This document shows, one piece after another, positions 32,874-48,143 of a DNA stretch of 64,000 bases. Position 1 is the stretch's first letter. Each line of letters begins with the position of its first letter. The position numbers were made by a program, and so were the translations under genes. Source of the DNA: an uncultured Syntrophaceae bacterium (GTDB lineage: Bacteria > Desulfobacterota > Syntrophia > Syntrophales > UBA5619); NCBI GenBank assembly GCA_964637025.1, contig CAZWTL010000004.1:34508-98507 (forward strand), written 5' to 3'. The notes beneath the pieces are model-generated. The model saw only the letters and a list, made by a program, of their open reading frames with translations. It had not been told where the DNA came from and ran no database searches.

Positions 32874-32902
32874 TTGACCCGCGACGCGGATGCGATTATA
32901 CT
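32874..32902 (+). promoter_or_regulatory. sigma70-type promoter for the BMP-Cache gene
   Basis: TTGACC-17 nt-TATACT. Confidence 0.65.
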
Positions 32903-32997
32903 GCGGACGCGAGATCCGGATGGACCGGTCCTTTTTGCGTGCGGCGGATCGGATCGATGCCGAAACAACGGCCGAATCGGGCGAAAGGAGACGAACC

Positions 32998-34791
32998 ATG
33001 AAAACATTGCGGACGCTTTTTCCCCTCTGTCTGGCCCTGCTGGCCTGCTGTGCCGCGAGTCCGGACGGCTGGGCCCAGGGCACCGCGCCCCTCAAAGTCG
33101 TTCTCATCTTCGACATCAACGGTCGGGGAGACGGGGGATTCAACGATTCGGCCTGCAGCGGTCTGGAAAAGGCGGCGGCCGCATTCGGCGTGAAGGCGGT
33201 TTACGTCGAACCCGGGAGAAGCCTGGAGCGCGACCGGGCGCTGCAAGAAGCCGCGGCGTCCGATGCCGGGATGATCATCGGGGTCGGCTTCGCCTTTTCC
33301 GACAGATTGAATGAACTGGCCCCCCAATATCCCCACAAGAAATTCGCCTGTGTCGACTACAGCGTCAGGCGAGACGGCCAGGGACGGATCGTGCCTTCCC
33401 CGGCCAATTTGGCCGGCCTGATGTTCAGGGAGGAGGAGGGTTCCTACCTGGTGGGCGCCATCGCGGCCCTGACGAGCCGGACCGGCAAAATCGGCTTCAT
33501 CGGCGGCATGTACAGCCCGATCATCCGCAAATTTCAGGCGGGCTATCTGGCCGGCGCAGCCGCCGCCCGGCCGGATATCCGGATCGTCTCGAAATTCGCC
33601 GGGATAACCGGCAGGGCGTTCAACGATCCCCAGAAGGGTTATCAGATCGCAACCCGCATGTACGGGGAGGGGGCGGACATCGTTTACCACGCAGCGGGCG
33701 CCACCGGCATGGGCCTTTTCCGGGCGGCCAAGGAGATGAAGCGGATGGCGATCGGCGTGGACACGGATCAGGGCGCCCAGGCCCCCGGACTGGTCCTGAC
33801 CAGCATGACCAAGCACATCGATGTGGCGGTGTTCGAAAGCGTGAAGGCGTTTGTCGAGGGGAATTTCACCGGAGGTCTGAAAACCCTGGGCTTGAAGGAG
33901 AACGGCGTCGGATTCGTCTACAATGACCAGAACCGGAATAGGATCGGTGAAGAAATCCATGGCAGGATCGAGGTGTTGAGGACGAAAATCATCGCAGGCG
34001 AATTGTCCGTCCCCGTGGAGAGCCCTCATAAGCCGCTCTTTTCCCGAACGGAGCTGCAGGAGATTCTGGCCGAACTCCGGCAGGAGATTGCAACGGCGCT
34101 GAACCGGCTGGACAGCGATCTTCAGCGGACCGCACACACGGTCTCCGGCACAGGGTTGGAGGGCGATTCCGTCAGGGGCGAGCTGAAGCGTCTTTACGGG
34201 GCGCATCCCTATCTCATCGACTGCGAGCTGGCGAACGATCGGGGCATCATGCTGGCCGTGGAACCTCCCGCGCACAGGGGATCGGAAGGCGCTGACCTCA
34301 GCGGCCAGGCGCATTGGGTCCGGCTGTTCAAAACCCGGAAGCCCGTGTTGAGCGATGGATTCCGCTCCGTGGAGGGCCCTTCCGCGGTCGCCCTGCATCA
34401 CCCTGTTTTCTCAGCGGATCGACGATTCTCGGGATCGGTGTCGGCCCTGTTCGCCCCGGAACAGCTGCTGTCGATCATTGTCGGACCGGTCTCCTCGAAC
34501 CTGCCCCTCGACATCTTTGTGATGCAGCCCGACGGATTGATGCTCTACGACATCGACGCCGATCAGATCGGACGCAATACCTTCCATGACCCGCTGTATC
34601 AGCCGTTCCCCGAGGTGATCGCCCTGGCCCGGAAGGTGGCCGCCGCCCGGGAGGGAACGGGCTCCTACCGATTCCGTCAGCCGGGCGCGGGATCGCCGTC
34701 AACGAAGATCGCCTACTGGGGGACCGTCGCATTGCACGGCACGTCATGGCGTGTCGTGATCGCCTGCGCGCAGGACGGCATCGAACCGTAG
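32998..34791 (+). CDS. Secreted BMP/PnrA-type substrate-binding domain fused to a C-terminal Cache-like domain
   Basis: Signal peptide; GRGDGGFNDSA, FREEEGSYLVG, AIGVDTDQ (BMP); then LSGQAHW..PVLSDGFRSVEG..FVMQPDGLMLYD..WRVVI (dCache-like); AAAGGAG RBS. Confidence 0.82.
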   Translation: MKTLRTLFPLCLALLACCAASPDGWAQGTAPLKVVLIFDINGRGDGGFNDSACSGLEKAAAAFGVKAVYVEPGRSLERDRALQEAAASDAGMIIGVGFAFSDRLNELAPQYPHKKFACVDYSVRRDGQGRIVPSPANLAGLMFREEEGSYLVGAIAALTSRTGKIGFIGGMYSPIIRKFQAGYLAGAAAARPDIRIVSKFAGITGRAFNDPQKGYQIATRMYGEGADIVYHAAGATGMGLFRAAKEMKRMAIGVDTDQGAQAPGLVLTSMTKHIDVAVFESVKAFVEGNFTGGLKTLGLKENGVGFVYNDQNRNRIGEEIHGRIEVLRTKIIAGELSVPVESPHKPLFSRTELQEILAELRQEIATALNRLDSDLQRTAHTVSGTGLEGDSVRGELKRLYGAHPYLIDCELANDRGIMLAVEPPAHRGSEGADLSGQAHWVRLFKTRKPVLSDGFRSVEGPSAVALHHPVFSADRRFSGSVSALFAPEQLLSIIVGPVSSNLPLDIFVMQPDGLMLYDIDADQIGRNTFHDPLYQPFPEVIALARKVAAAREGTGSYRFRQPGAGSPSTKIAYWGTVALHGTSWRVVIACAQDGIEP

Positions 34792-35023
34792 CCGCCCGTC
34801 CGGATCGCACCCTCCCCGTCTCGGGGATCGAAGGGGTTCGCATCGAGCGCGGGAAGGGCCGGCGTGGCGGCAGGGCGCCGAAGAAGGGATTTGGATGGGG
34901 ACGGCTCTGCCGTGAAGCCGGGCGGGAACGGCGCTTCGGGGGGTGGAGAAGGGCGCATCCATTCCCATAGCGGGAAGCGATCCGCGCGGCCGGCCGGGAT
35001 CCGGATCCCTCTGCAGGGCAGGC

Positions 35024-35515
35024 TTAAAGCAGCGCCCTCCCCTCGCCGCTCTCCAGAAAGGGAATGATGCCGCCGGCCATGATGATCCGTTTCATCAGGA
35101 CGGGCATCGGCTGAAAATCCATCACGGCTCCGGAGGAGACATTCCGGACCCTCCCCTGCTCCAGGTCCAGGGCCAATTCGTCCCCTTCGGCGATCGGGTC
35201 CGTATCCCCGGTGATGACGGGAAGACCCAGGTTGACCGCATTGCGGAAGAAGGTTCTGGCAAAAGACTTTGCCAGCACGGCCTGGATGCCCGCTCCGGCG
35301 ATCACGAGCGGGGCGATCTCCATGGCCGATCCACAGCCGAAATTTTCGCCGGCAACCAGAAAGTCGCCGGCCCGGACCGTTTCGCCGAAGCCCGGCCGGA
35401 TGTCCTCCATCAGAAAGCGGGCCAGCCGGTGCGGGTCCACGGTATCCCTTTTTCTCTTGGAGGCGATGATGTAGTCCGTGTTGACGTCGTCGCCGAATTT
35501 ATGCGCGATTCCCAT
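35024..35515 (-). CDS. LeuD/HacB/DmdB-type hydratase small subunit
   Basis: HKFGDDVNTDYII, GENFGCGSAME, SFARTFFRNAVNLG; only the C-terminal 163 aa of the 627-aa ORF-track entry. Confidence 0.92.
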   Translation of the reverse strand: MGIAHKFGDDVNTDYIIASKRKRDTVDPHRLARFLMEDIRPGFGETVRAGDFLVAGENFGCGSAMEIAPLVIAGAGIQAVLAKSFARTFFRNAVNLGLPVITGDTDPIAEGDELALDLEQGRVRNVSSGAVMDFQPMPVLMKRIIMAGGIIPFLESGEGRALL

Positions 35516-35541
35516 GAACGTCTCCGTCGAAGGCCCCTGTC

Positions 35542-36795
35542 TCACAGAAATGCTCTCGGATCCGCGATTGCGCCCGCCAGACACGATGCCGCCAGGGTGG
35601 CAGGCGAAGCGAGATAGATGCGGGCCTTGACATTTCCCATCCGGCCGAGAAAATTCCGGTTTGCGGTGGAGATGACATTCACGTCGTCCGCGGGCACCCC
35701 CCCCAAGGCCCCGACACAGGGACCGCAACCCGGCACATTGAGCATGCCGCCGCTTTCGATCAGGGTCTGGATATAGCCCCTTTTGCACGCCTCCAGCATG
35801 ACGGCCCTGCTGGCGGGCGCGATGACGAACACCACCCCGGGATGAATCTTCTTCCCCTTGAGAATCTGCGCCGCCGCAGCCAGATCCTCGATCCGCCCGT
35901 TGGTGCAGGTCCCCAGAAAAGCCATGGCGATCCTTTCCCCCTTCACCAGGGAAACGGGCTGAACGTTGTCCACCCGGTGGGGAACGGCCACCTGGGGTTC
36001 GAGCGTGGAGACGTCGACGAGGCGCTCCCCGGCGTAAGCCGCATCCCTGTCCGGCACAACGGGCCGAACATCCCCGATGCCGCGCTCCCTCAGCCAGTCC
36101 CGGCAGACCGCGTCCGCGGGCATGATGCCCGCCTTGGCCCCTGTCTCCATCATCAGATTGCAGACGGTCAGCCGGCCGTCCATGGACAATCCTTCCAGGG
36201 TTTCGCCGGAAAACTCGATGGCCAGGCCGTTGGCCCCCCTGGCGGTGATCTGTCCCACGATGTGGAGGCCGATGTCCTTGGCGCTGACCCCGCAGGGGAT
36301 CCCGCCCTTGAGCTCGATCCGGACGGACGGCGGGACCTTGAACCACAGGAGGCCGTAGTGAAGGGCCACGGCCATGTCCGTCGATCCCACGCCGGTGGCA
36401 AAGGCGTTCAACGCCCCGTAGGTTGTCGTATGGGAGTCCGATCCGATAACGAGCTGGCCCGGCTGGACATGTCCTTTCTCGGGCACCAGCTGGTGGCAGA
36501 CCCCCTCGCCTTCTCCGTAGAGGGTGCAGCCGAATCGACGGGCAAAGTCCTTCATCTCCCCGTGGATGCGGGATACTTCCCGGCTCGGGCTCGGACAGTA
36601 GTGATCCAGGATCAGAACCAGCTTCCGCGCCTCCTTGACCGTGAAGTCCGGGATTTTTCGAAGCGCCTCCAGGACCAGGGGGAAAGAGGCGTCGTTGGAC
36701 ATCATGAGATCGAGCGGCGCGAACAGAATGTCGCCGGCAGCCACCTCGCGTCGGACATGGGCGCTGAAGACCTTCTCGGCAACGGTTTGACCCAT
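35542..36795 (-). CDS. LeuC/HacA/DmdA-type aconitase-family hydratase large subunit
   Basis: DHY, GVCHQ, GSDSHTTTYG, LGTCTNGR, GCGPCVG, STANRNFLGRMG. Confidence 0.95.
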   Translation of the reverse strand: MGQTVAEKVFSAHVRREVAAGDILFAPLDLMMSNDASFPLVLEALRKIPDFTVKEARKLVLILDHYCPSPSREVSRIHGEMKDFARRFGCTLYGEGEGVCHQLVPEKGHVQPGQLVIGSDSHTTTYGALNAFATGVGSTDMAVALHYGLLWFKVPPSVRIELKGGIPCGVSAKDIGLHIVGQITARGANGLAIEFSGETLEGLSMDGRLTVCNLMMETGAKAGIMPADAVCRDWLRERGIGDVRPVVPDRDAAYAGERLVDVSTLEPQVAVPHRVDNVQPVSLVKGERIAMAFLGTCTNGRIEDLAAAAQILKGKKIHPGVVFVIAPASRAVMLEACKRGYIQTLIESGGMLNVPGCGPCVGALGGVPADDVNVISTANRNFLGRMGNVKARIYLASPATLAASCLAGAIADPRAFL

Positions 36796-36910
36796 GGTTC
36801 ATCGCTCTCCGCGGACAGAGGCGCCCGGCGTTCCTGATCCGAACCCGTCGGTTGACCCTTCCGCTCCCCTTCCCCGCCCATGCCCGGCATGACCGGGGAG
36901 GGGGCATCCC

Positions 36911-37615
36911 CTACCTGATCCCCTTTTGTTCGAGGATTTCGTCGATACCCGGCCGAATCACCATGCCGGCCCCGATCTCCTTCAATCTTTTGTCCTCGCG
37001 CTGAATGACCTTGTCCACCTCATGGATGACGGTGGCCGCTATTTCCTGCTTCAGGACCACCACGCCGTCGTCATCCGCTATGATGATGTCCCCCGGACGG
37101 ACGACCTGGCCTCCGCAGCTGATCGGGAAATTAATCTCGCCGGGCCCCTCCTTGAACGGGCCATTGGGCGACAGGCCCGCCGAAAAAACCGGGAAACCGG
37201 ATTTCCGGATCTCTTCCGCATCCCTCACGCACCCGTCGGCCACGATTCCCGCCACGCCGAGCTTCATGGCCGTGCTCACCATGAGGAATCCGAGCAGGGC
37301 CCAGGAATGGTTCCCGCCGCCCTCGATCACCAGCACGTCTCCCGGTTGGATCAAGGTCAGGGCCTTGTGGATCATGAGGTTGTCCGTGGGCGGCACGCGG
37401 ACGGTCATCGCGGGCCCGACGATCTTCATCCCGTCCCCCAGGTTTTTGATCCGGCTGTCCATGGCCGCCCCCCGGCCGATGCAATCGTTCACGTTGCCGG
37501 TCAGGCATCCCGTCTTCTTCATCAGATTGCGATACGGTTCGATCAGGTCCGCCGCCGGCCGGTCAAAGTCCGTCCTGTAGCGGAACCCGGGTTTCCCGAT
37601 CTCCTTTATGTTCAT
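36911..37615 (-). CDS. RraA-family protein (HMG/CHA aldolase-like)
   Basis: GPAMTV..DNL..HKAL..QPGDVLVI, DGCVRD, PGDIIIADDDGVVV; start at MNIKEIG. Confidence 0.88.
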   Translation of the reverse strand: MNIKEIGKPGFRYRTDFDRPAADLIEPYRNLMKKTGCLTGNVNDCIGRGAAMDSRIKNLGDGMKIVGPAMTVRVPPTDNLMIHKALTLIQPGDVLVIEGGGNHSWALLGFLMVSTAMKLGVAGIVADGCVRDAEEIRKSGFPVFSAGLSPNGPFKEGPGEINFPISCGGQVVRPGDIIIADDDGVVVLKQEIAATVIHEVDKVIQREDKRLKEIGAGMVIRPGIDEILEQKGIR

Positions 37616-37774
37616 TCGAAGTCTCCTTTCATGCCTTCGGGCGCCGATGCGGCATGACCCCCAGACGACGGTGGGATCGGACCCGATGCAGGATCCGCAT
37701 AGGCAGATCCTCCTTGAGCGGCCCATCCGCGCCACGCGAATCGCCTGCGCGCGATCCTCCGCCCATCGGGGGCA

Positions 37775-37804
37775 ACATTAACCCACTCCTCGCGGCAATG
37801 TCAA
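37775..37804 (-). promoter_or_regulatory. Possible internal promoter for rraA-leuC-leuD-like genes
   Basis: TTGACA-18 nt-TAATGT within a 300-bp intergenic gap. Confidence 0.45.
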
Positions 37805-37923
37805 TGTCCGTCCGCTGCCATTCCGGAACGCACGCCAATGATGATGCGCGTGTCGCGGGCGGACAATGGAACCGCTGACGGCCAATGCGGGGGGCAACAG
37901 GGCGGAGGGGGCAGGTGAAGGTC

Positions 37924-38919
37924 TCAACCGCCGAGTCCCAGTTTCTGGAGTACTTCGGGATTGAGAACGTTTTCAGGTATTCTTCCCTCGAACAGGGCGA
38001 TCACCTTCTCCACCGTCTGCATGGCCATGGCGTAAGAGGCCTGGTTGCTCAGACCGGCCACGTGGGGGGTGGAGACGACATTCTCCAACAGGAGGTGGTC
38101 CCGAAAGACCGGAGGCTCTGCTTCGAAAACATCGAGTCCCGCGCCGGCAATCCACCCTTCCCTCAAGGCGTTGTAAAGGGCGCATTCATCCAGGACGGCC
38201 CCCCGGGATGTGTTGATCAGAAAGGCGGTCCTCTTCATGAGTCGCAGCCGATCTCCATCGATCATGCCCCGGGTGGAGCCGTCCAGAGGCACGTGGATGG
38301 TCACAAAATCGGCCTCCCGCAGAAGCGCTTCCTTCGAACGGCAGGGGATGCCATACCGTTCCTGAAAATCCGGGTACTCGACGATATCGTTGGCGATGAT
38401 CCTGGTTTCGAAACCCTGCAACCTCCTGGCCACCCTCTTGCCGACGTTTCCCAGGCCGATGATCCCCACGGTCTTCCGGAAGAGGTCTTCCCCGCCGCTG
38501 GCCCGCGGATAGAGCCCCTTTCGCATCTCCCTGTCCTTTTGGGCGATTTGCCTGGAAACGGCAAGCATGAGGCCGATGGTCATGTCGGCCACGGAATCGG
38601 CGTTGGAACCCGGATTGTGGGTGACCACCACCCCGTGGTCGGTGGCGGCCTTCAAATCCGATCCCTCGAAACCGGCGCTCCGTATGGCGATCATTTTCAG
38701 GCGGCCGCAACTTTCGATGATTTTCCGGGTCACCGGAAACATGGCGGTCACGACGATCGCGTCCGCCCCCTGAATGGCCCGGCAGACCTCGTCTTCCCGG
38801 GATGGAGCGACCCGGTCATAGGCCTTCTCTTCCACAATGAATCCGGCCTGCCGAAGTTTCTCGATGGGATCGCGGGAGACCTCGGCGAATTTCTGGGTCA
38901 TGATCATGACCGTCGGCAT
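37924..38919 (-). CDS. D-isomer 2-hydroxyacid dehydrogenase (phosphoglycerate dehydrogenase-like)
   Basis: GIIGLGNVG, LINTSRG, AGLDVF..EP, TPHVAG. Confidence 0.92.
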   Translation of the reverse strand: MPTVMIMTQKFAEVSRDPIEKLRQAGFIVEEKAYDRVAPSREDEVCRAIQGADAIVVTAMFPVTRKIIESCGRLKMIAIRSAGFEGSDLKAATDHGVVVTHNPGSNADSVADMTIGLMLAVSRQIAQKDREMRKGLYPRASGGEDLFRKTVGIIGLGNVGKRVARRLQGFETRIIANDIVEYPDFQERYGIPCRSKEALLREADFVTIHVPLDGSTRGMIDGDRLRLMKRTAFLINTSRGAVLDECALYNALREGWIAGAGLDVFEAEPPVFRDHLLLENVVSTPHVAGLSNQASYAMAMQTVEKVIALFEGRIPENVLNPEVLQKLGLGG

Positions 38920-39111
38920 TTTTCCCCTTCTCCTGAGGCCCGCACCGTGGTGCAGGGGACTCCGTTTACGGAAACCCTCGCTTCCGAACCGTCCCGGAGA
39001 GCGGCCGGGCTATCCGTTGAGATATCTCCCGCGCGCCCGGCGGCCCGAGTTCAGCGGACCGGTGCCGGTCAAGCCGCCGGGCGGGGGTTCAATGCAGGGA
39101 CGTCGAGACAC

Positions 39112-40122
39112 TTACTGCGCCTGGATGTTGCACTCCTTGATGACCTTGTTCCACTTGACGGATTCCGCCTCCATGAATTTGGTGAAGGCGGCCCCGGTCA
39201 GCAGATCGATTTCCGCCCCCTGGTCCTCCAGGATTTTCACCATCTCCGGCGTCTTCATGATCGCGGCAATCTCCGCGTTGAGCTTGTCGATGATCGGTTG
39301 CGGCGTCCCTGCCGGGGCGAACAGACCCCACCAGATGAAGGACTCATACCCCGGAAGGCCCGCCTCGGAGACGGTCGGAATATCCGGCAGAATCTTGCTG
39401 CGGTTCTTTGCGGCATAGCCGAGGGCTTTCACCTTTCCGGACTTGATATGGGGAAGCGCCTGCGCGATGCTGACGAAAATGAGATGGGAGTGGCCTCCGA
39501 GCACGTCGACCATCGCCGGTCCGCCGCCCTTGAACTGGGTGATCTTGTAATCGATGCCGGCCATCGACTTGAAGAGCTCCGTGGACAGATGGCCGAAACT
39601 GCCGGCCCCTGCCGCCGCCGCCACCAGTTTGCCGGGTTCCTTCTTGGCCAGGGCAATGAGCTCCTTCACCGAATTGGCCGGGACCGACGGGTGGACGTCA
39701 AGGACCGAAACCGAGTTGCCGATCTTGGCGATGGGGGCAAAGGACTTGAAGGGATCGTAGGGTTGTTGTGAAATCAGGGGATTGAGGATAATCCCCGAGG
39801 AGTGGAAGAGCAGGGTATAGCCGTCCGGGGCTGCATTGGCGACGATCTGTGCGGCCAGGGTGCCGCCGCCCCCGGCCTTGTTTTCCGTAACGAATTGCTT
39901 GCCGAGGCGTTCGGAAAGCTTGGCGGCGATCAGGCGGCCCGTGGCGTCGGTGCTTCCCCCGGGTGCAAAGGCGATCAGAAACCGCACCGGTTTTTCCGGA
40001 TAGGAATCCGCGGCCGCCCAAACCGGGGACAAAGGCCAGGCGACGGCCGCGATCGTGAGCAGGGCCGTCATGAAAACCGGCCACCCGTTTCTCCTGGGAA
40101 CTCGTCTTGTCATGATTTCCAT
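39112..40122 (-). CDS. tctC: Tripartite tricarboxylate transporter substrate-binding protein (Bug/TctC) 1
   Basis: YPEKPVRFLIAFAPGGSTD, ENKAGGGG, PDGYTLL, YKGG-like FKGGGPA. Confidence 0.93.
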   Translation of the reverse strand: MEIMTRRVPRRNGWPVFMTALLTIAAVAWPLSPVWAAADSYPEKPVRFLIAFAPGGSTDATGRLIAAKLSERLGKQFVTENKAGGGGTLAAQIVANAAPDGYTLLFHSSGIILNPLISQQPYDPFKSFAPIAKIGNSVSVLDVHPSVPANSVKELIALAKKEPGKLVAAAAGAGSFGHLSTELFKSMAGIDYKITQFKGGGPAMVDVLGGHSHLIFVSIAQALPHIKSGKVKALGYAAKNRSKILPDIPTVSEAGLPGYESFIWWGLFAPAGTPQPIIDKLNAEIAAIMKTPEMVKILEDQGAEIDLLTGAAFTKFMEAESVKWNKVIKECNIQAQ

Positions 40123-40248
40123 CCTTTCTTTGCTATGAGGTTTGCATGCCGCTCTTCAAGATCAGCGAGCTGCTGATTGAAGACCTTCCCACCCTTTGCC
40201 CGACCGTTGTGGCCTGCCGGGACGGCTTTGAACAGGCGTTGCCGGTCA

Positions 40249-41748
40249 TCAGCTGACCATGTCGTCACGTCGCTTGCGCACGGCCGGCAGCCACATCACG
40301 ATCAGGATCAGGACCGTGGCGATGACGAACGCCAGGCTGATCGGCCGGGTCAGGAACACCGTCGGATCCCCCTCAGAGACCTGCAGGGACCGTCGCAAAT
40401 TCTCCTCCAGGATCGGTCCCAGCACGAATCCCAGCAGAAGCGGCACGGGGCTGAATCCGAACACCCGCCAGCAAACCCCCAAAATGGTGAAGAACGCAGC
40501 CAGGTAGAGGTCAAAGGCGCTGTTGTCGGTGCTGTAAATGCCGATCGCGGAAAAAACCATGATCGCCGGGAACAGCAGGCGGTAGGGAACCTTGAGCAGG
40601 CTCACCCAGAGGCCGACCAGCGGCAGGTTCAGGACGACCAGGATCAGGTTGCCGATCCACATGCTGGCGATAAGCCCCCAGAAGAGGGCCGGTTGTTCGA
40701 CCATCACCGAAGGACCCGGCGTGATCCCCTTGATCATCAACGCGGCAAGCATGAGCGCCATGGTGCCGCTGCCCGGAACGCCCAGGGTCAGGGTGGGAAT
40801 GAATGCGCACTGGGAGGCGGCGTTGTTGGCGGATTCCGGTCCCGCCAGCCCCTCGATCGCTCCCTTGCCGAAGCGTGACGGGTCCCGGGAGATCCTCTTC
40901 TCGACCATGTAAGAAGCGAACGATGAAATGGCGGGACCCGTGCCGGGCAAAGTGCCGAAGAACGCGCCGATCGCCGTCCCCCTGAGGATCGGGAAAGCGG
41001 ACTGTTTGAGGTCGTCCCGTGAGGGGTAGAGGCTGCCCAGCTTTGAGGAAAAGACCTGCTGCCGCTCCTCGGCATCGCTGAGGTTGCAGATGATTTCGCC
41101 GATGGCAAAGACGCCGATCGCGATGATCACAAAATCGATCCCCTCCAGGAGCTCAAAGAAGCCGAAGGTGAAACGCGAGATCCCGGAATCGACGTCGGAA
41201 CCGACGATGCCGAACAGAAGCCCCAGCACCACCATGGCCAGCGACTTGATCATGTCCCCCTGGGCCAGCACCGAGGCCGCGACCAGGGCCATCAACATGA
41301 GAGAAAAGTATTCCGGCGAGCCGAACTTCAGGGCCATCTCCGCCAGGGTCGGACCGAAAAGCGCGATGATCAGCGTACAGACGGTGCCGGCAAAAAACGA
41401 TCCGATCGCCGCGATCGCCAGGGCCGGTCCGGCGCGGCCCTGGCGGGCCATCTGATAGCCGTCGATGCAGGTGATCACCGACGCCGTCTCCCCGGGGAGG
41501 TTCACGAGGATCGAGGTGGTCGATCCTCCGTACGCGGCGCCGTAGTAGATCCCGGCCAGCATGATCAGGGCCGAGACCGTGGGCACGTTGTAGGTGATCG
41601 GCAGCAGCATCGCGATCGTCGCCAGGGGACCGATGCCGGGAAGCACCCCGATCAGGGTGCCGAGCAGAACGCCGAGGAAACAATAGAGCACGTTCTGCAG
41701 CGTGAGGGCCACGCTGAAGCCGTAGACAAGGTGGTGGACAATCTCCAT
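40249..41748 (-). CDS. tctA: Tripartite tricarboxylate transporter permease TctA 1
   Basis: GTLIGVLPGIG, YGGSTTSILVNLPGE, GPESANNA, LGVPGS. Confidence 0.95.
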   Translation of the reverse strand: MEIVHHLVYGFSVALTLQNVLYCFLGVLLGTLIGVLPGIGPLATIAMLLPITYNVPTVSALIMLAGIYYGAAYGGSTTSILVNLPGETASVITCIDGYQMARQGRAGPALAIAAIGSFFAGTVCTLIIALFGPTLAEMALKFGSPEYFSLMLMALVAASVLAQGDMIKSLAMVVLGLLFGIVGSDVDSGISRFTFGFFELLEGIDFVIIAIGVFAIGEIICNLSDAEERQQVFSSKLGSLYPSRDDLKQSAFPILRGTAIGAFFGTLPGTGPAISSFASYMVEKRISRDPSRFGKGAIEGLAGPESANNAASQCAFIPTLTLGVPGSGTMALMLAALMIKGITPGPSVMVEQPALFWGLIASMWIGNLILVVLNLPLVGLWVSLLKVPYRLLFPAIMVFSAIGIYSTDNSAFDLYLAAFFTILGVCWRVFGFSPVPLLLGFVLGPILEENLRRSLQVSEGDPTVFLTRPISLAFVIATVLILIVMWLPAVRKRRDDMVS

Positions 41749-41762
41749 TGAATCCCTCCTTG

Positions 41763-42221
41763 TCAGATTCCCTTGAAGAGCGGGTAGGGAAGCCCGAGGC
41801 CCCAGATGAACAGGGCGATCGCCGCGGCCAGCAGGACCGCCGTGAGCAGGAGGACCTCCAGAACGCGGAACGTCCGGCCGGAAAGCGCCGCCACGAAGAC
41901 CAGGACCACGAGGGCCGGAATGAAGCCGGCCCGGTCCATCAGGAGGCCGAACAGCACCAGGGCCAGCGGCGGAAGGATCACGGTCCTGGCGGTGAGAGGT
42001 TGCGTGATCCGCTCGCCGCTGCGCAGCCCCATCGCCACGACGGAGACGCCGAACACGATCAGGATCCCGCCCAGAATGGTGGGGAAGAATCCCGGCCCCA
42101 TACGCGACGCGCTTCCGAACCCGTAACTCCTGGAGATGATTACGGCAGCGGCGCCGAAGCCGATCAGCATCAGCCCGGCCCAGAAATCCCTATTTTGCAG
42201 GAAACGCGTGACCATGGCCAA
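41763..42221 (-). CDS. tctB: TctB-family small membrane subunit 1
   Basis: RMGPGFFP, 4-5 TM segments, adjacent to tctA. Confidence 0.88.
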   Translation of the reverse strand: MAMVTRFLQNRDFWAGLMLIGFGAAAVIISRSYGFGSASRMGPGFFPTILGGILIVFGVSVVAMGLRSGERITQPLTARTVILPPLALVLFGLLMDRAGFIPALVVLVFVAALSGRTFRVLEVLLLTAVLLAAAIALFIWGLGLPYPLFKGI

Positions 42222-42316
42222 GACCCCTGTGTTTCAACCGTTGCAGACGGACGCTTGCCGGCGACCGTTCAACGCTCTCACTGCCGCACGGCAGGTGCGG
42301 TCCCGGATTGCCGGAT

Positions 42317-43465
42317 TCAACCGCCCGCGATCTCGTCCAGGGCCTGTTTCAGGCGTGCGAGCCCCTTTTCCAGGATTTCGACGGATGTGGCGAAGCAGAT
42401 GCGGAAATGGCTCTCGCCGCAGGCCCCGAACTCCGTGCCGCTGCGAACCAGAATCCCCTTGGAGAAAAGATACTCCCGCATCTTCGGGCTGGTCAGGGCA
42501 TGTTCATAGCGGGGGAAAAAATAAAAAGCCCCTTCGCAAGGCGGCGTGGAAAGCCCTCCGATATCGCCCAGCAGCCGCGTGACAAGGTTCTTTCTCTTCT
42601 CATATTCGCGGCGCATGGTTTCGACGCACTCCTGGGGGCCGAGAAGGGCGGCCACGCAGGCCATCTGCGCCGGCACGTTGGTGCAGGTCGCCATCGCCTT
42701 GTTAAAGGTCACCATCTCCTTGATGCGCGGCGCATCGGCCACCATGTACCCCACCCGCCAGCCGGTCATGGCATAGGTCTTCGAGAAGCTGTTGAGCAGA
42801 ATGGAACGGTTCCGGACCTCCTCGACCTGGCAGATCGACAGGAACGGGACCTCCCCATAGATGAGCTTGTGGTAGACTTCGTCGATCACCAGGAGCAAGT
42901 TCCTTTCCACGGCGAGCCGGGCCAGCCTCCGGACCTCGTCCTCCCTCAACACCCGGCCGGTCGGATTGCCCGGATTGGAGACGAACAGGATCCTGGATCT
43001 CGAGGAGACGCGTTCTTCAAGGACATCAAAATCGATGTGAAAGTCCTCGCTGAGGGGGATGAAAACCGGCGTTCCGCCAAAGAGCGAAACGGAGTCGGCA
43101 TAGGCCGAATATTCCGGATCCGGAATCAGTACTTCATCGCCGGGATTGAGATAGGTCGCGCAGATGGTGTGAATGCCCGCGATCCCCCCCGAGGTGATCA
43201 GAACGTTCTCCGGACCGCGCTTCTGGCCATAATCCCGTTCGAGGCCCGTACAGACGGCCTCCCTCAGCGCCGGTTCCCCGTAAGCATTGCCGTAATGGGT
43301 ATGTCCGTCCCGCATGGCGCGCGCGGCCGCCTCCTGAATGTGCAGGGGCGTGGGGAAGTCGGGCTCCCCCATCTCCAGGCGAATGGCGTCCCTGGGGATG
43401 GCCGTGGGCCGCTGGGAACGCTCGGACCCGGACAGTTTTTTTACGCGATCGGATAGTTCGAACAT
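42317..43465 (-). CDS. PLP-dependent aminotransferase class I/II
   Basis: GEPDFPTP, NPGNPTG, DEVYH, NSFSKTYAMTGWRVGY. Confidence 0.95.
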   Translation of the reverse strand: MFELSDRVKKLSGSERSQRPTAIPRDAIRLEMGEPDFPTPLHIQEAAARAMRDGHTHYGNAYGEPALREAVCTGLERDYGQKRGPENVLITSGGIAGIHTICATYLNPGDEVLIPDPEYSAYADSVSLFGGTPVFIPLSEDFHIDFDVLEERVSSRSRILFVSNPGNPTGRVLREDEVRRLARLAVERNLLLVIDEVYHKLIYGEVPFLSICQVEEVRNRSILLNSFSKTYAMTGWRVGYMVADAPRIKEMVTFNKAMATCTNVPAQMACVAALLGPQECVETMRREYEKRKNLVTRLLGDIGGLSTPPCEGAFYFFPRYEHALTSPKMREYLFSKGILVRSGTEFGACGESHFRICFATSVEILEKGLARLKQALDEIAGG

Positions 43466-43501
43466 CTCTTCTCTCCTTGATTGATCTTCAGCGGATATTG
43501 A

Positions 43502-43966
43502 CTAAAAATGGACAAGGGGTACGGGCATGGGAACCTTCAACACCACCTGGAAGAGGTAATAAGAGACAACGGCGGTCATCAGGCCGAAGACGATGCTCGT
43601 CTTCCAGGCGAAATGCCCCAGAAACTTTGCCAGAAAAAGGATGAAGAATCCCGTGACCGGAGCAAAACCGATCACCGGAAGAAGATACCTGTAGACCAGC
43701 AGGGCGGCGAAGACGAAGAGAATTCTCCGGGGCGCTTCCCTGGCCGGGAAGAAAGGGGCATCGTCTCCCTCGGTACGGTCCTTCTTGACGAAGCTCTGGA
43801 CCGTCAGCACCAGCGACAAACCCAACAGCATGACGGACCCGATCAGAGGGAAGAAGCCGCCGCCCGGTTTCTGCAGCGTTCCGATCGGGTAGGAGCGGGC
43901 CACGGCAAACACCACGACCACCCCCAAAATTGTAAAAAAGATGCCACAGATACGATCCATTTTCAT
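43502..43966 (-). CDS. tctB: TctB-family small membrane subunit 2
   Basis: KPGGGFFP, LFQVVLKVPMP; hydrophobic. Confidence 0.85.
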   Translation of the reverse strand: MKMDRICGIFFTILGVVVVFAVARSYPIGTLQKPGGGFFPLIGSVMLLGLSLVLTVQSFVKKDRTEGDDAPFFPAREAPRRILFVFAALLVYRYLLPVIGFAPVTGFFILFLAKFLGHFAWKTSIVFGLMTAVVSYYLFQVVLKVPMPVPLVHF

Positions 43967-44050
43967 GTGTAAAGATTCCTGCCGGACATCGGCGTCCGTT
44001 TACGGCGATGTTTTCCTTTCCCGTCGAGACGGGACATGGGCATCGTCATG

Positions 44051-44093
44051 GGGGATCGGGGAACGCCCCGACAGGGGGCGTTCCCCGATCCCC
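44051..44093. repeat. Perfect 19-bp inverted repeat (5-nt loop) between tctC2 and tctB2
   Basis: GGGGATCGGGGAACGCCCC-gacag-GGGGCGTTCCCCGATCCCC; no U-tract. Confidence 0.9.
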
Positions 44094-44126
44094 GTCCGCG
44101 CACTGTTGCGTTTTGGATGAAATCCG

Positions 44127-45095
44127 TTAAGGCGCTTTCCCGACCAGTTTGGTCAGTTTATCGTATTTCACGTCTTCCTTCTTCCAGAACTGCGCCAATT
44201 CCTCCGGGGTCTTCATCGAGACGGTGGCCCCCTGATTGTCGAAGAAGTCCATCACCTCCTTCGCCTCCATGCCCTTCTTGATGGCATCGTAGAGGACCTT
44301 CACCCGATCCTTGGGCATGCCCTTGGGACCGATGTAAGCCCAATAGGTCAGGTATTCGGCGTCAATCCCCAGATCCTTGAACAACTGGGCGTTCGGAGCA
44401 AACTTGTTCTTTTCGGGCGCCGCCAGCCCCAGGACCTTCAGGCTGCCCCCCTTGACCATATGGAGGGTGTCGGCGATCGTGGACATGATCACGTCCACGT
44501 GGCCGCCCATGACGGCCGGAATCGCCGGGGCGCTTCCCTTGAAGGGAATGTGGGTGAATGTCACCCCCGCGGCCTGCTCGATGCCGATCGCCCCAAGATG
44601 AAAGTTGCCTCCGTGTCCGCCGTTGCCGACCCGCAGCTTGCCCGGGTTTGCCTTCGCATAATCCATCACTTCCTTTAAGGTGTTCCAGGGGGCGTCCTTC
44701 CGGGTGAGGAGGCCCTGCGGGCTGTATCCCACGAAAGCGATGGGTTCGAATTGGTCATACTGAATGTTGGCGTCGGGAATGGTGTATTTGAGGATGCTGA
44801 ACGTGGGGGAGACCGTTCCGAAGAGATACCCGTTGGGGGGCGCCGTTTTCACCACATTGCAGCCGATCGTCGTCCCTCCGCCCGGCTTGTTCTCGACGAG
44901 CACGGAAACCCCGAGGATCTTTTCCAACTGCGTCTGAAGGGCGCGGGCGACCAGGTCATGGCTTCCTCCCGGCGCATACGGTACGACCAGCGTGATCGGC
45001 TTGCTCGGGAACTTTTCCTGCGCAACAGCCAGGCTGACCATTGCCGTAGCGCAAATCAAAACGCACACGAATAGCAATGCAACTGTCTTCTTCAT
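44127..45095 (-). CDS. tctC: TctC/Bug substrate-binding protein 2
   Basis: FPSKPITLVVPYAPGGSHD, ENKPGGG, HIPFKGSAPA. Confidence 0.93.
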   Translation of the reverse strand: MKKTVALLFVCVLICATAMVSLAVAQEKFPSKPITLVVPYAPGGSHDLVARALQTQLEKILGVSVLVENKPGGGTTIGCNVVKTAPPNGYLFGTVSPTFSILKYTIPDANIQYDQFEPIAFVGYSPQGLLTRKDAPWNTLKEVMDYAKANPGKLRVGNGGHGGNFHLGAIGIEQAAGVTFTHIPFKGSAPAIPAVMGGHVDVIMSTIADTLHMVKGGSLKVLGLAAPEKNKFAPNAQLFKDLGIDAEYLTYWAYIGPKGMPKDRVKVLYDAIKKGMEAKEVMDFFDNQGATVSMKTPEELAQFWKKEDVKYDKLTKLVGKAP

Positions 45096-45207
45096 CGTCC
45101 TTTCTCCTTTGCCTCTGCTTTATAAGTTATACGGGCTGTTTCCTCTTCCCCTCGACTCGACTCTCCCTTCAACGCGTTTGGCTGCCAACCGATTCCGAAA
45201 CAAAGGA

Positions 45208-46719
45208 TCATGAATCGGCGCTTCCCAGTTTCTCGAGCAATCGCCTTCTCCTTCTCGCAAAAACAACCGACGATACGATGAAAAGCAACGTTATGGACAA
45301 GAGCACCGCCGGCACGGGCCGGGTGGCGAACATGGTCAAATCCCCGTGGGACATGAGCAGCGACTGCCGGAAGGATTCTTCCCAGAGGGGCGACAGAATG
45401 TAGGCGAAGACCAGGGGAGCACACTCGAAACCCGTTTTTCTGGCGAGGTAGCCTACGATACCGAAGATGATCATCAGGTTGATGTCCATCAGGCTGCTCT
45501 GGCTGGAATAAACGCCGACGACGCAGAAGAACAGGATCAGGGGGAAGAGGATCCGGTACGGGACCTTCAGCAGTCGCACCCAGATGCCGATCAGCGGCAG
45601 GTTCAGGACCAGAAGCATCACGTTGCCGATGTACATGCTCACGATGATCCCCCAGAAGACATCGGGATGCTCCTTGATGAGGAGGGGCCCCGGGGTGATT
45701 CCATGGATCAGCAGGGCCCCCAGGATCAGGGCCATGGTCGCGGTCGTCGGAATGCCGAATGTCAGCAGGGGGACGAAGGTTCCGGAAGAGGCCGAATTGT
45801 TCGCGGCTTCGGGTCCGGCCACCCCTTCGATCGCACCCTTTCCGAATCGCTCGGGATGCTTGGAAAGCCGCTTTTCAATAATATAGGATACAAAGGTCCC
45901 GATCAGGGTCCCCGAGGCCGGCAGAACCCCGAGGAAAAATCCCAAAAATGAACCCCGGAGGATCGGGTTGATCGAGGCTTTCCAATCCTCCCAACTGGGC
46001 AGCAGGCCCTTGATCCGGGCCTGGAAGACCTCGCGCTCCACGATCTGCTCCAGGTTGATGAGGATCTCTCCGACCCCGAAAATTCCCATGACCATCGGAA
46101 CGATGCCGATCCCCTCGTACAATTCATTGATGCCGAACGTGAAGCGTTGCACTCCGGAAACCGTGTCGATCCCCATGGTGCCCAGAATCATCCCCAGCGC
46201 GACCATGATGAACGATTTGACCATGGATCCCGAAGACAGATATGCGGACATGGTCAGCCCCAGGAAAATCAGAGAGAACAGCTCGGGGGGGCCGAACTTC
46301 ACGGAATACCGGGCCACGACCGGCGCCACCATCATCAGCAGCACGACGCTCAGGGTGCCGGCGATGAACGAGCCGATGGCCGAGATCCCCAGCGCCCTCC
46401 CCGCCTTTCCCTGGCGGGCCATCTGGTATCCATCGATGCAGGTCACGACCGACGACGATTCCCCCGGGATGTTGACCAGGATGGCCGTGGTCGATCCGCC
46501 GTACATGGCGCCGTACCATATCCCGGCCAGCAGAATGATGGCGGTGACCGGGGGGAGGCCAAAGGTGAACGGAAGCAGGATGGCCACGCTGCCCGCCGTT
46601 CCGATGCCGGGCAGAACGCCGATGAGGGTGCCGATGAGAACCCCGATGAAGCAATAGAAGAGATTCGAGGGGGTGGTGACGACCGAAAAACCCAGTGCGA
46701 TGCTATGGAGCGTATCCAT
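45208..46719 (-). CDS. tctA: TctA permease 2
   Basis: GTLIGVLPGIG, YGGSTTAILVNIPGE, GPEAANNS. Confidence 0.95.
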   Translation of the reverse strand: MDTLHSIALGFSVVTTPSNLFYCFIGVLIGTLIGVLPGIGTAGSVAILLPFTFGLPPVTAIILLAGIWYGAMYGGSTTAILVNIPGESSSVVTCIDGYQMARQGKAGRALGISAIGSFIAGTLSVVLLMMVAPVVARYSVKFGPPELFSLIFLGLTMSAYLSSGSMVKSFIMVALGMILGTMGIDTVSGVQRFTFGINELYEGIGIVPMVMGIFGVGEILINLEQIVEREVFQARIKGLLPSWEDWKASINPILRGSFLGFFLGVLPASGTLIGTFVSYIIEKRLSKHPERFGKGAIEGVAGPEAANNSASSGTFVPLLTFGIPTTATMALILGALLIHGITPGPLLIKEHPDVFWGIIVSMYIGNVMLLVLNLPLIGIWVRLLKVPYRILFPLILFFCVVGVYSSQSSLMDINLMIIFGIVGYLARKTGFECAPLVFAYILSPLWEESFRQSLLMSHGDLTMFATRPVPAVLLSITLLFIVSSVVFARRRRRLLEKLGSADS

Positions 46720-47507
46720 CGTCTAGCCCTGTGAAAGAATATGGGGAAACAGCAAAACGGGTTCTGAATCCGTCCATGTACGCGTCGAATGCGGAATGGA
46801 AAGCAGCGGGGCTGAAGCCGGAGGGGCCGGCATGGGAAGGCATCCCGTTGCACCGGTCCCTACGTTTTTCTCGGCCTGATTCGGACGGAACCGGGTCGGG
46901 ACAAGCGGTACCGAAAGTCCGACCCAAGCCGGTCCCGCGACGCCCAGCCAACCCGAACGGGAAGCGCGGGGCCTTTTCAAGACAGGCGGAAAAGAGGCGA
47001 CCGTCAGGATCATACCGATCGATAGAAGAAAGTCTCCCATGTTTTCCGCCTTCATGCCAATCCCCAGATTCCTGTGTCTTTGGCAGGACGAGAATGTTAC
47101 CGGTGTATCACTGTATGAAATAGTGTTTTATAAGATATCGTTATCGAATTCAGGGCGCGATGTCAAGAAGAAATATCGGGAGGTGATCCTGTCGGTCCGG
47201 GCGGAGCGCCCTCCGAATCTGCTCCGCTCCAATATCTCCGGGGCTCTCCCTGCAGCCGGTCATGAACCGGGCGAGGCTCTGTCTGCCCCGGCTTACTTCC
47301 CCAAACCAAAGCCTTGCCATGCGGCAGGCCCGGCTCCGTCCGTCATCGAGGCGATCCCGTCCCACCAGGGGAAAGAATCGGCAGTCCGTCAAATCGACGG
47401 AATCGTCCCGAACCGCTCTCGCCTGAACCGTCCCTGAAGGTCGGCCCCGAGCCGGACCAGCGCCTCATGCCCTTCCGAACGCGGCGGATGTCCGGCGGTG
47501 CGCCGGG

Positions 47508-48143
47508 TCATCCCGTCCTAAGGCGTTCGCAGGAGCGGGCCTCCTCGTCGTACAACGCGCAATCGCCGTCGGAGACCGCTCCGACAACGACGATGTGGCG
47601 CGCCGCACCCTCCAGGACCTCGGGCCGTCCCGGCTCGACCGGCATGCGCGTCACGCGCCCCCCCGCATACCTGAACCGCACCGGGCGGTGCGAATGGCCG
47701 CAGAACAGGATGCTGCAATCCGTTTGGTCGAAGACCCTTTTTGCCCGGTCGGTTCCGCCCGTGTCGATCGGCTCGTAGAAGGCGCGGAACGTATCGAAGG
47801 GAAGCGAGTGGGCGAATCGGATGGCTTCCCGGACCCGGACGAGAGGCAAGTCGCGCAGATAGGCCAGCATTCCTATGCCGTCGGCGTCAAGGGGTCTGCG
47901 GCTGCCGGCCAGCCTGTTTTCGACCGCGAAATCGTTGTTCCCCTTGACGGCGGGGATCCCCTGTTCCCGAAGCAGAGAGATCATCGCCGCGGAGCGCTCA
48001 TGACGGACGGAATCGCAGAAATCGCCGAGATGGATCAGGAGGGACGCACCCCTGCGCTTCAGCAGGCCGATCGCCTGCCGCGTGGCCTCCAGGTCGCCGT
48101 GGCTGTCGGCGATGAGGCCGATCCGCTCACCGCGCTTCTTCAT
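47508..48143 (-). CDS. Calcineurin-like metallophosphoesterase
   Basis: ADSHG, LGDFC, KGNND, CGHSH. Confidence 0.88.
   Translation of the reverse strand: MKKRGERIGLIADSHGDLEATRQAIGLLKRRGASLLIHLGDFCDSVRHERSAAMISLLREQGIPAVKGNNDFAVENRLAGSRRPLDADGIGMLAYLRDLPLVRVREAIRFAHSLPFDTFRAFYEPIDTGGTDRAKRVFDQTDCSILFCGHSHRPVRFRYAGGRVTRMPVEPGRPEVLEGAARHIVVVGAVSDGDCALYDEEARSCERLRTG

Follow-up and report, generated by a model that had tools for sequence, protein, structure and literature searches.

A transporter-linked LeuCD-type gene cluster of an uncultured Syntrophaceae bacterium, with a distinct LeuD subfamily and a likely role in organic-acid breakdown

We analyzed a 64,000-nucleotide stretch of DNA (the window) from an uncultured Syntrophaceae bacterium (contig CAZWTL010000004.1 of assembly GCA_964637025.1), and focused on a cluster of eleven genes at positions 35024-46719, all on the minus strand. 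Pfam and NCBIfam profiles identify their products as two tripartite tricarboxylate transporter (TTT) systems, a class I aminotransferase, a D-isomer-specific 2-hydroxyacid dehydrogenase, an RraA-like lyase, and the large and small subunits of a LeuCD-like hydro-lyase. The cluster is most likely a catabolic island that breaks down an imported organic acid, a reading that draws on the paralogy of its LeuCD pair and on the joint recurrence of the enzyme genes elsewhere.

The genome (3.07 Mb in 147 contigs, 98.6% complete) holds three aconitase-family loci. Contig C1 carries a canonical leuC-leuD-leuB set (C1:71165-74070), whose LeuC passes the LEU2 equivalog TIGR02083 with 695 bits against a cut-off of 610. 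The LeuC of our cluster is 41% identical to the C1 protein and falls below the same equivalog (413 against 610), and it scores 501 on NF001614 (cut-off 385); the cluster LeuD also falls below the leuD equivalog (154 against 246). Aligned with the C1 LeuC, the cluster LeuC keeps the three cluster-ligand cysteines and the DSH and NRNFxGR motifs. There is no Iso_dh or HMGL-like match in the window, the genome’s matches lying on other contigs or at C4:9105-10013, outside the window. The original prediction, made from the letters alone, had remarked on the lack of leuA and leuB and judged leucine synthesis unlikely; both statements are borne out, and the genome has a canonical isopropylmalate isomerase apart from the cluster LeuCD. 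On identity and profile scores the cluster pair is a paralogue of the biosynthetic enzyme, and because the canonical set lies on C1 it would have a separate function. The genome also has an 836-aa aconitase on contig C25 and a second Iso_dh gene on contig C35.

We next aligned the cluster LeuD with the solved small subunits 3vba, 2pkp and 1v7l. It has GCGSAME where these have G(C/I)GSSRE, and its specificity loop reads NTDYIIASKRKRDTVDP, as compared with PARYLVYT, PGPYLRTT and PGRYNLT, respectively. The GSSRE motif has been described as conserved in all isopropylmalate isomerase small subunits and aconitases (PMC7308503), and the catalytic serine base is Ser642 of mitochondrial aconitase (PMC8184944). 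GSAME retains the serine at the catalytic-base position (the first of GSSRE), with the second serine changed to alanine and the arginine to methionine. The loop, ASKRKRDT, follows a subfamily pattern of S(K/S)RKRDT, and its arginine aligns with the loop arginine of the homoaconitase small subunit 2pkp.

Among about 55 LeuD-like sequences from related loci (numbered L below), GSAME always accompanies a loop of the (R/K/H/Y)KRDT type, and sequences with other loop types all have GSSRE. Two intermediates are known: L120 has a KHKRDT loop with GSSRE, beside an RraA 77% identical to ours, and genome G028 has an RRKRDT loop with GSSME. When 1.84 billion cluster representatives were searched, GSAME turned up in 23 of the 150 best matches, and their loops, wherever captured by the pattern, are of the RKR(D/E) type, with a few variants (RKRK, RKRV and RKKE). 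Judged from these sequences, the GSAME motif and the basic loop co-vary almost perfectly and mark a distinct, moderately diverse LeuD subfamily, of which we found no description in the literature searched. A pyridoxal phosphate (PLP) enzyme recurs beside LeuD proteins of this type. The chemistry need not be exotic, because L120, in the same RraA context, pairs a basic loop with an unchanged GSSRE.

The low-GC loci L070, L072, L078, L082 and L088 hold a second branch of the subfamily. In the two annotated ones (L082:8721-11774 and L088:5340-12501), LeuC and LeuD come after a class V aminotransferase gene of cysteine-desulfurase-like type, and neither RraA nor a dehydrogenase was detected; in L088 there are also a BioC-like methyltransferase and, upstream, a CitMHS transporter. 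An additional, orthologous LeuCD pair, with loop PGAYLN and GSSRE intact, stands beside the GSAME LeuCD-RraA-aminotransferase module in a sediment contig (L043:9418-11248) and in an Oceanispirochaeta metagenome-assembled genome (MAG; L121:5843-7745), in the latter together with a LarA-like racemase and a TTT system. This arrangement suggests two consecutive aconitase-type steps in some hosts. Further LeuCD paralogue families, with loops SSRHRTQTLDY or SGKHKARLTD and GSSRE intact, are found in L193-L197 (genomes G075, G388, G173, G067 and G028), where TTT genes adjoin them in three of the five loci (L194, L196 and L197). LeuCD-like paralogues next to TTT or other carboxylate transporters are common in Desulfobacterota, and the combination of LeuCD-like and TTT genes recurs, unexplored, in the window’s phylum.

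To place the cluster among these relatives, we mapped all eleven of its proteins onto the fetched loci by tblastn. Close LeuC relatives (67-79% identity) come from metagenomes and MAGs only. The gene order LeuC-LeuD-dehydrogenase-RraA-aminotransferase is contiguous in L043; L038, L039 and L041 have LeuC-LeuD-dehydrogenase; and LeuCD is followed further along by dehydrogenase-RraA in L045, by RraA-aminotransferase in L046, and by the aminotransferase in L032. In these seven loci, identities to the cluster proteins are 56-79% for LeuC, 58-61% for the dehydrogenase, 69-71% for RraA and 63-77% for the aminotransferase. The dehydrogenase orthologues of 58-61% identity sit after LeuD in L038, L039, L041 and L043, and aminotransferase orthologues range from 55 to 77% identity across the related loci. 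LeuCD directly adjoins RraA in the window and in L120-L122, and RraA adjoins the aminotransferase in L043, L046 and L121-L123.

The cluster is patchily distributed. A scan of species genomes found RraA orthologues of at least 65% identity in just 12 MAGs, mostly labelled Desulfobacterales or Deltaproteobacteria, with two spirochaetes among them. The spirochaete loci (L121 and L122) have LeuC-LeuD-RraA-aminotransferase, with a TAXI-TRAP transporter in L122 and a short-chain dehydrogenase/reductase (SDR) in L121. None of 12 sampled genomes of the same order carries an orthologue, and the best RraA match in 400 genomes sampled from the window’s phylum is 48% identical. Transporters beside the enzymes of L032, L038, L039, L041, L043, L045 and L046 are MFS or ABC, not TTT, so that four importer families (TTT, MFS, ABC and TAXI-TRAP) alternate beside the enzymes. 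The dehydrogenase is also swapped non-orthologously, a DUF1932-type NADP oxidoreductase lying by the hydro-lyase in L119 and L120 and the SDR in L121; the redox step therefore appears to be wanted regardless of fold. The enzyme genes thus recur together in distant genomes. Because they travel together across phyla, with their order shuffled and their importers exchangeable, we see good evidence in these gene neighborhoods that they would form one pathway for an imported compound and have spread horizontally.

Neighboring genes give a hint of where the carbon might go. In L042, L044, L045 and L046 (LeuC 56-58% identical), LeuCD is preceded by an IorAB-like 2-oxoacid:ferredoxin oxidoreductase (531 bits on IOR_alpha, where the cut-off is 651), a butyryl-CoA:acetate-like CoA transferase and an MFS transporter. 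Further ahead, L044 and L045 have methylmalonyl-CoA mutase with its B12 subunit, an mmdA-like carboxyltransferase and methylmalonyl-CoA epimerase. These neighbors fit a 2-oxo acid that feeds succinyl- or propionyl-CoA. LarA-like genes occur in L045 and L121; for the L045 copy, which lies beside LeuD, the highest-scoring model is that of a malate racemase (469 bits, under its cut-off of 500).

The closest relatives of RraA, the first TTT system and the aminotransferase lie in a different enzymatic setting. In L113, L116 and L119, RraA is 87-89% identical to ours and is followed by tctA1 (82%), tctC1 (69-72%), a class III aminotransferase, tctB1, the class I aminotransferase (71-76%), tctB2, tctA2 (72-74%) and tctC2 (37-38%); the same 69-72% identity holds for TctC1 across L112-L119. 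Upstream of RraA stand, in order, a PrpD-like gene, TcuA, TcuB, a DUF1932-type NADP oxidoreductase (in L119), a fused PRK07229 aconitase and a GntR/UTRA regulator. TcuA (665 bits, cut-off 369) and TcuB (372, cut-off 246) are both present in L116 and L119, and the aconitase scores 894 bits (cut-off 612) and has GSSRE. In the window’s 98.6%-complete genome there is no TcuA match above 28 bits and no orthologue of the GntR regulator, its best match being 29% identical and on another contig. The relatives also have aminotransferases that are absent from the window: a class III enzyme (HemL/GntE-like) between tctC1 and tctB1, and a class IV enzyme after tctC2 (L116:13382-14749 and L119:19772-20608).

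Comparison of the two settings indicates that TTT system 1, the aminotransferase and RraA make up a shared lower part, and that hydro-lyase, dehydrogenase and TctC2 have been exchanged as a set. The swap of TctC2 can be read from its identity of 37-38%, as against 72-74% for TctA2, and the exchanged parts are contiguous in the window (tctB2-tctA2-tctC2-dehydrogenase-RraA-LeuC-LeuD). The TcuAB and aconitase neighbors of these closest relatives point to tricarboxylates, and would be consistent with conversion of tricarballylate to 2-oxoglutarate by way of aconitate, isocitrate and oxalosuccinate.

A strain variant shows a further boundary. In contigs from two runs of one biogas-fermenter study, a strain about 98% identical to the window on either side of the junction has position 39857 joined to 47255 through 33 other letters; it keeps a truncated tctC2, followed by dehydrogenase-RraA-LeuCD. 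The eleven genes are accordingly not one invariant unit: the TTT-aminotransferase-TTT block is a cassette absent from a near-identical strain, and a 308-nt gap with a promoter-like site precedes rraA. About ten metagenome studies, on bioreactors, wastewater, sludge and biogas, contain the organism itself.

We next examined the remaining enzymes against profiles and solved structures. RraA falls below NF004850 (219 against 231) and below both CHA-aldolase equivalogs, where CHA stands for 4-carboxy-4-hydroxy-2-oxoadipate, namely NF006731 (148.6 against 179) and TIGR02798 (LigK/PcmE; 125.8 against 304.5). Its best solved relative is 3noj (E 2.4e-34), with which the equivalents of Arg40, Asn71, His75, Gly101, Arg123, Asp124 and Lys147 align; the equivalents of Asp102 and Thr145 differ, and the alignment at Glu199 is uncertain. 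In the Pseudomonas putida HMG/CHA aldolase (HMG being 4-hydroxy-4-methyl-2-oxoglutarate), Arg123, Asp124, Asn71, His75 and Lys147 are catalytic or metal-binding, and the enzyme also decarboxylates oxaloacetate (PMC5065237). The gene is the genome’s sole RraA-family member. A role as regulator of RNase E is not supported, given scores below the corresponding equivalogs (NF006875, 90.7 against 136; TIGR02998, 41 against 241) and its length of 234 aa, as compared with about 160 aa. A more distant RraA-like gene (46% identical) lies in L199 (G067:C218, 254-9692), flanked by three paralogues of a protein of about 330 aa without a Pfam family, and accompanied by a class I aminotransferase and a TAXI-TRAP permease. 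The same Pfam-less protein occurs at L043:7903-8901, and may be a binding protein.

The dehydrogenase belongs to 2-Hacid_dh at the family level only, scoring 246 against 455 on the glyoxylate reductase equivalog PRK13243 and 234 against 454 on that for phosphoglycerate dehydrogenase. Its solved relatives are the phosphoglycerate dehydrogenase 1wwk, glyoxylate reductases and, at a greater distance, McyI, which as a 2-hydroxyacid dehydrogenase oxidizes 3-methylmalate ahead of transamination. For the aminotransferase, every NCBIfam match is below its cut-off, including all aspartate aminotransferase equivalogs; its best solved relatives are 1dju/1gd9 and 1j32, and it resembles archaeal aromatic and aspartate aminotransferases.

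Both TctA/TctB/TctC sets are complete, with all six Pfam matches above cut-off. They are indeed divergent, as had been proposed: the TctA proteins are 53% and the TctC proteins 32% identical, and the TctB proteins are barely alignable. The best solved relative of TctC1 is 4x9t and that of TctC2 is 2dvz (E 1.6e-65), which we take to be the glutamate-binding BugE. The further proposal of two substrates is plausible and can be refined, in that relatives have TTT system 1, the aminotransferase and RraA in common with the window (70-89% identity), and the TTT system 2 binding protein (37%) and the upper enzymes are swapped. The association with these transporters also fits the predicted catabolism of di- or tricarboxylates.

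The features are listed in Table 1. All eleven genes are real and stand in the order first predicted. A 627-aa open reading frame (ORF) at 35024-36907 is a high-GC artefact, of which LeuD is the C-terminus only; LeuC lies in another frame, and the LeuD start is the ATG at 35515, preceded by GGAGA. RraA starts at the ATG at 37615, behind AAAGGAG, rather than at the GTG of a 274-aa ORF, which gives it 234 aa like its orthologues. Intergenic gaps range from 14 to 308 nt, the longest lying between the dehydrogenase and RraA and containing a promoter-like site (TTGACA-17-TTAATG) ahead of rraA; a promoter and terminator scan did not rise above shuffled expectation. The GC content of the cluster is similar to that of its flanks. 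An Rfam scan of 34500-48000 gave no family at threshold, hence no riboswitch in the long leader, and the upstream region shows no notable operator-like palindromes. None of the flanking ORFs scanned has a DNA-binding domain, in agreement with the prediction that no regulator is adjacent. The cluster end is bounded by a convergent gene at 34791. The product of this neighbor (32890-34791, plus strand) joins a BMP/PnrA binding domain to a sensor domain of the HK/GC/chemotaxis type and has no output domain.

Table 1. Features of the cluster and its upstream region, in window coordinates.
Feature	Position	Strand	Length and profile evidence, or remark
upstream leader, ~790 nt	46720-47507	-	AT-rich promoter-like stretch at about 47170-47100
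110-aa ORF inside leader	47055-46723	-	without Pfam or NCBIfam match
tctA1, TTT system 1 large permease	46719-45208	-	503 aa; Pfam TctA 549 bits
tctC1, TTT system 1 periplasmic binding protein	45095-44127	-	322 aa; Pfam TctC 171 bits
tctB1, TTT system 1 small membrane subunit	43966-43502	-	154 aa; Pfam TctB 74.6 bits
class I (fold-type I) PLP aminotransferase	43465-42317	-	382 aa; Pfam Aminotran_1_2 226 bits
tctB2, TTT system 2 small subunit	42221-41763	-	152 aa; Pfam TctB 56 bits
tctA2, TTT system 2 large permease	41748-40249	-	499 aa; Pfam TctA 526 bits
tctC2, TTT system 2 binding protein	40122-39112	-	336 aa; Pfam TctC 217 bits
D-isomer-specific 2-hydroxyacid dehydrogenase	38919-37924	-	331 aa; Pfam 2-Hacid_dh_C 184 bits, 2-Hacid_dh 96 bits
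RraA-like class II pyruvate lyase (aldolase/beta-keto-acid decarboxylase fold)	37615-36911	-	234 aa; Pfam RraA-like 163 bits
LeuC-like large subunit, aconitase-family Fe-S hydro-lyase	36795-35542	-	417 aa; Pfam Aconitase 312 bits
LeuD-like small subunit, GSAME / S(K/S)RKRDT subfamily	35515-35024	-	163 aa; TIGR02087 163 (cut-off 109)
strain-variable segment, 7.4 kb	39858-47254		tctA1 through 5' third of tctC2 and part of the leader

The data establish what the genes are, their paralogy and co-conservation, the motif change in LeuD and the cassette arrangement; the pathway drawn from them here is inferred in every one of its reactions, in its direction of flow and in its substrate. A TTT system would import a polycarboxylate of the hydroxy or ene kind; a citrate-, aconitate- or homocitrate-type tricarboxylate is the most likely. 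The LeuCD-like Fe-S enzyme would then, by dehydration and rehydration, place a secondary (2R)-hydroxyl next to a carboxyl, and the D-2-hydroxyacid dehydrogenase would oxidize this product to a 3-substituted oxaloacetate. The RraA-like Mg-dependent lyase would remove the beta-carboxyl, with chemistry as in the oxaloacetate decarboxylase reaction of its family, and the class I aminotransferase would link the resulting 2-oxo acid to its amino acid, possibly a second imported substrate. In this manner, LeuCD, the dehydrogenase and RraA would do the work of aconitase and isocitrate dehydrogenase, or of LeuCD and LeuB, two proteins standing in for the second enzyme of those pairs. Of the schemes in which every conserved gene has a part it is the simplest, and the genes of L043 are collinear with the proposed order of reactions. 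McyI offers a precedent for a 2-hydroxyacid dehydrogenase step before transamination. We put this three-enzyme equivalence, followed by transamination, forward tentatively, as a possibility of somewhat less than even standing.

Within the scheme, a tricarboxylate is our first guess, because of the TcuAB and CitMHS contexts and because of the basic loop, whose arginine aligns with that of homoaconitase. Candidate substrates are isomers and homologues such as trans-aconitate-derived acids, erythro-isocitrate and homocitrate. The substrate is probably one not yet described, since LeuD has lost a motif near-universal in the aconitase family. Sulfonates (sulfolactate, cysteate) and phosphonates of the phosphonomethylmalate type had also been considered, prompted by the lost carboxylate-binding arginine and by ABC binding proteins with a faint resemblance to PhnS (154 and 68 bits, well short of the cut-off). 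We dropped them as unsupported, with no C-S or C-P enzymes present; the genome was not searched for phosphoenolpyruvate mutase.

Several points weigh against the proposed pathway. No cluster enzyme reaches an equivalog cut-off, so the profiles assign no substrate, and TTT transporters carry many non-tricarboxylate substrates. Use of plain citrate or isocitrate was judged unlikely: with a housekeeping aconitase (C25) and another Iso_dh gene (C35) in the genome, the module would not be needed for this purpose. LeuD is without the GSSRE arginine, so ordinary malate-type binding may not apply. The aminotransferase has GGIAG where 1j32 has GGKQS, and the lysine of GGKQ binds the distal carboxylate in subgroup I-gamma aspartate aminotransferases. 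RraA is not visible next to every GSAME-type LeuCD, being missing from L032, L034 and L036 (which have short flanks) and from the class V aminotransferase branch. Finally, we know of no RraA-family member shown to act as a stand-alone decarboxylase on a 3-substituted oxaloacetate.

A bolder reading starts from the LeuD subfamily itself. The GSAME / S(K/S)RKR(D/E) proteins could mark an undescribed aconitase-superfamily activity with a re-wired substrate-binding and catalytic site. Together with an RraA-type lyase, such an activity would open a new way for anaerobes of digesters and sediments to use polycarboxylates from plants, an idea that we regard as speculative and unlikely. Candidate reactions are the hydration of trans-aconitate or another trans-enoate, and of a keto-activated enoate; the former may give a stereoisomer of isocitrate that ordinary isocitrate dehydrogenase could not use.

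The same enzymes can be arranged in other ways. The scheme might run on C4/C5 dicarboxylates around an oxaloacetate/3-methyloxaloacetate hub, with LeuCD converting maleate or citraconate/citramalate to D-malate or 3-methylmalate, the dehydrogenase forming (methyl)oxaloacetate, RraA releasing pyruvate or 2-oxobutyrate, and the aminotransferase connecting aspartate or 3-methylaspartate. Oxaloacetate is a known decarboxylase substrate of the RraA family (PMC5065237). The malate-racemase-like LarA gene of L045 and its counterpart in L121 would suit this arrangement, as would the methylmalonyl-CoA, IorAB-like and CoA-transferase genes upstream in L042, L044, L045 and L046, which suit the conversion of 2-oxobutyrate to propionyl-CoA or an oxaloacetate/pyruvate transcarboxylase cycle. 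McyI among the relatives of the dehydrogenase, with the role given above, and 2dvz as the closest solved relative of TctC2, presumably a glutamate binder, point the same way. Nevertheless, a strongly basic loop is unexpected for a hydrogen or methyl substituent (the citramalate isomerase 3vba has ARYLVY there), and the closest RraA, TTT system 1 and aminotransferase relatives are tied to tricarballylate and aconitase genes. Canonical LeuCD and LeuB, moreover, handle citramalate-type substrates in many bacteria. Overall, we consider C4/C5 substrates rather unlikely, if a little less so than the retro-aldol cleavage that the original prediction had offered as an option. There, the aminotransferase or the dehydrogenase would turn an imported 2-amino or 2-hydroxy acid into a 2-oxo acid, LeuCD would hydrate or shift the hydroxyl in an unsaturated 2-oxo-polycarboxylate to give an HMG/CHA-like 4-hydroxy-4-carboxy-2-oxo acid, and RraA would cleave this to pyruvate and a second oxo acid, in parallel to LigJ-LigK or GalB-GalC, but with the hydratase being of a third, Fe-S type.

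Support for such a hydratase-aldolase sequence comes from the best-characterized RraA-family enzyme, which is an HMG/CHA aldolase and, as 3noj, the top solved relative with its catalytic residues kept (PMC5065237), as well as from the adjacency of LeuCD to RraA and of RraA to the aminotransferase. The lost GSSRE arginine and the basic/acidic loop would fit a ketone-activated C-H with the distal carboxylate further off, though this is inference only. RraA nonetheless scores below both CHA-aldolase equivalogs, L120 combines a KRDT-type loop with GSSRE in the same RraA context, so that unusual chemistry is not required, and the TcuAB and aconitase neighbors of the closest RraA orthologues would go unexplained. 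We could name no abundant natural substrate, and we know of no aconitase-family enzyme that acts on keto-activated substrates; we regard this route as doubtful. Far less probable is a biosynthetic or salvage role, in which a scavenged alkylmalate would be turned into a proteinogenic or non-proteinogenic amino acid by chain elongation without a LeuA step, or mere adjacency of genes without a common pathway. Amino-acid chain-elongation pathways likewise run from isomerase to dehydrogenase, decarboxylase and aminotransferase, and gaps of 192 and 308 nt, with the promoter-like site before rraA, permit separate transcription. Against this, importers of four families interchange beside the enzymes, L046 has catabolic genes for a 2-oxoacid oxidoreductase and a CoA transferase in between, the enzyme genes remain together in distant phyla despite their shuffled order, and the window is without a condensing enzyme.

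Almost no transporter-linked LeuCD-like paralogue has an assigned substrate, and the present cluster is a tractable case, with a conserved module of five enzyme genes, a clear sequence signature in the lost GSSRE arginine and the gained basic loop, and relatives that can serve as natural comparators because their hydro-lyase, dehydrogenase and one binding protein differ by exchange. Identification of the substrate would add an aconitase-superfamily reaction, give a physiological role to a widespread RraA-like clade, and explain the use of plant organic acids by abundant uncultured anaerobes in biogas and wastewater reactors. If the dehydrogenase and an RraA-type decarboxylase do divide the work as proposed, this would be a non-orthologous replacement of the isocitrate/isopropylmalate dehydrogenase step.

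Several known systems bear comparison with the cluster, and the literature searched holds nothing relevant on RraA in combination with LeuCD/aconitase, TTT, 2-hydroxyacid dehydrogenase, tricarballylate or maleate hydratase. The best solved relatives of both LeuCD subunits are the archaeal-type isopropylmalate/citramalate isomerase and the methanogen homoaconitase (LeuCD/HacAB; 4kp2, 4nqy, 3vba and 2pkp), which are likewise two-subunit Fe-S hydro-lyases and whose large-subunit Fe-S cysteines and motifs are kept in our LeuC. The pair nonetheless falls below all LeuC, LeuD, HacA and HacB equivalogs (HacA_Meth, 412 against 550; HacB2, 151 against 230); the HacAB loop PGPYLRT differs from ASKRKRDT, with the arginine alone aligning; and in place of a LeuA/LeuB or AksA/AksF partner there are transporters, RraA and a 2-Hacid_dh enzyme. 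With the HMG/CHA aldolases (LigK/GalC, 3noj), RraA shares a fold and would be expected to stabilize a pyruvate-type enolate on Mg2+. It differs in scoring below the LigK/PcmE and PRK09262 cut-offs, in the lack of protocatechuate or gallate pathway genes, and in a host that lives in anaerobic reactors. The analogy first drawn with DmdAB/maleate hydratases and HMG aldolase is thus not confirmed: besides the RraA scores, LeuD is without GSSRE and is no ordinary LeuD or DmdB, meeting, with regard to DmdAB/HbzIJ, the broad LeuD/DmdB subfamily model only (163 against 109). No lyase of the isocitrate lyase family was seen among the window ORFs scanned.

The tcuAB and PRK07229 aconitase loci (L113, L116 and L119) have RraA, TTT system 1, the aminotransferase and TctA2/TctB2 in common with the window, in the same order. 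The window differs from them in lacking TcuA, the GntR regulator and the class III and IV aminotransferases, in having the GSAME-type LeuCD and a 2-Hacid_dh enzyme instead of a fused aconitase and DUF1932 oxidoreductase, and in its TctC2. The proposed logic, a hydroxyl shift on a substituted malate followed by oxidation, beta-decarboxylation and transamination, is that of aconitase with isocitrate dehydrogenase, of LeuCD with LeuB, and of homoaconitase (HACN) with homoisocitrate dehydrogenase (HICDH) and aminoadipate aminotransferase. Those systems use one Iso_dh-family enzyme, whereas the cluster would, by analogy, split oxidation and decarboxylation between the 2-Hacid_dh enzyme and the RraA-type lyase. 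The cluster, of interest to enzymologists and anaerobe physiologists, would be a variant of the transporter-linked LeuCD-type organic-acid pathway, and what is new in it is a well-defined LeuD subfamily and a set of natural module swaps.

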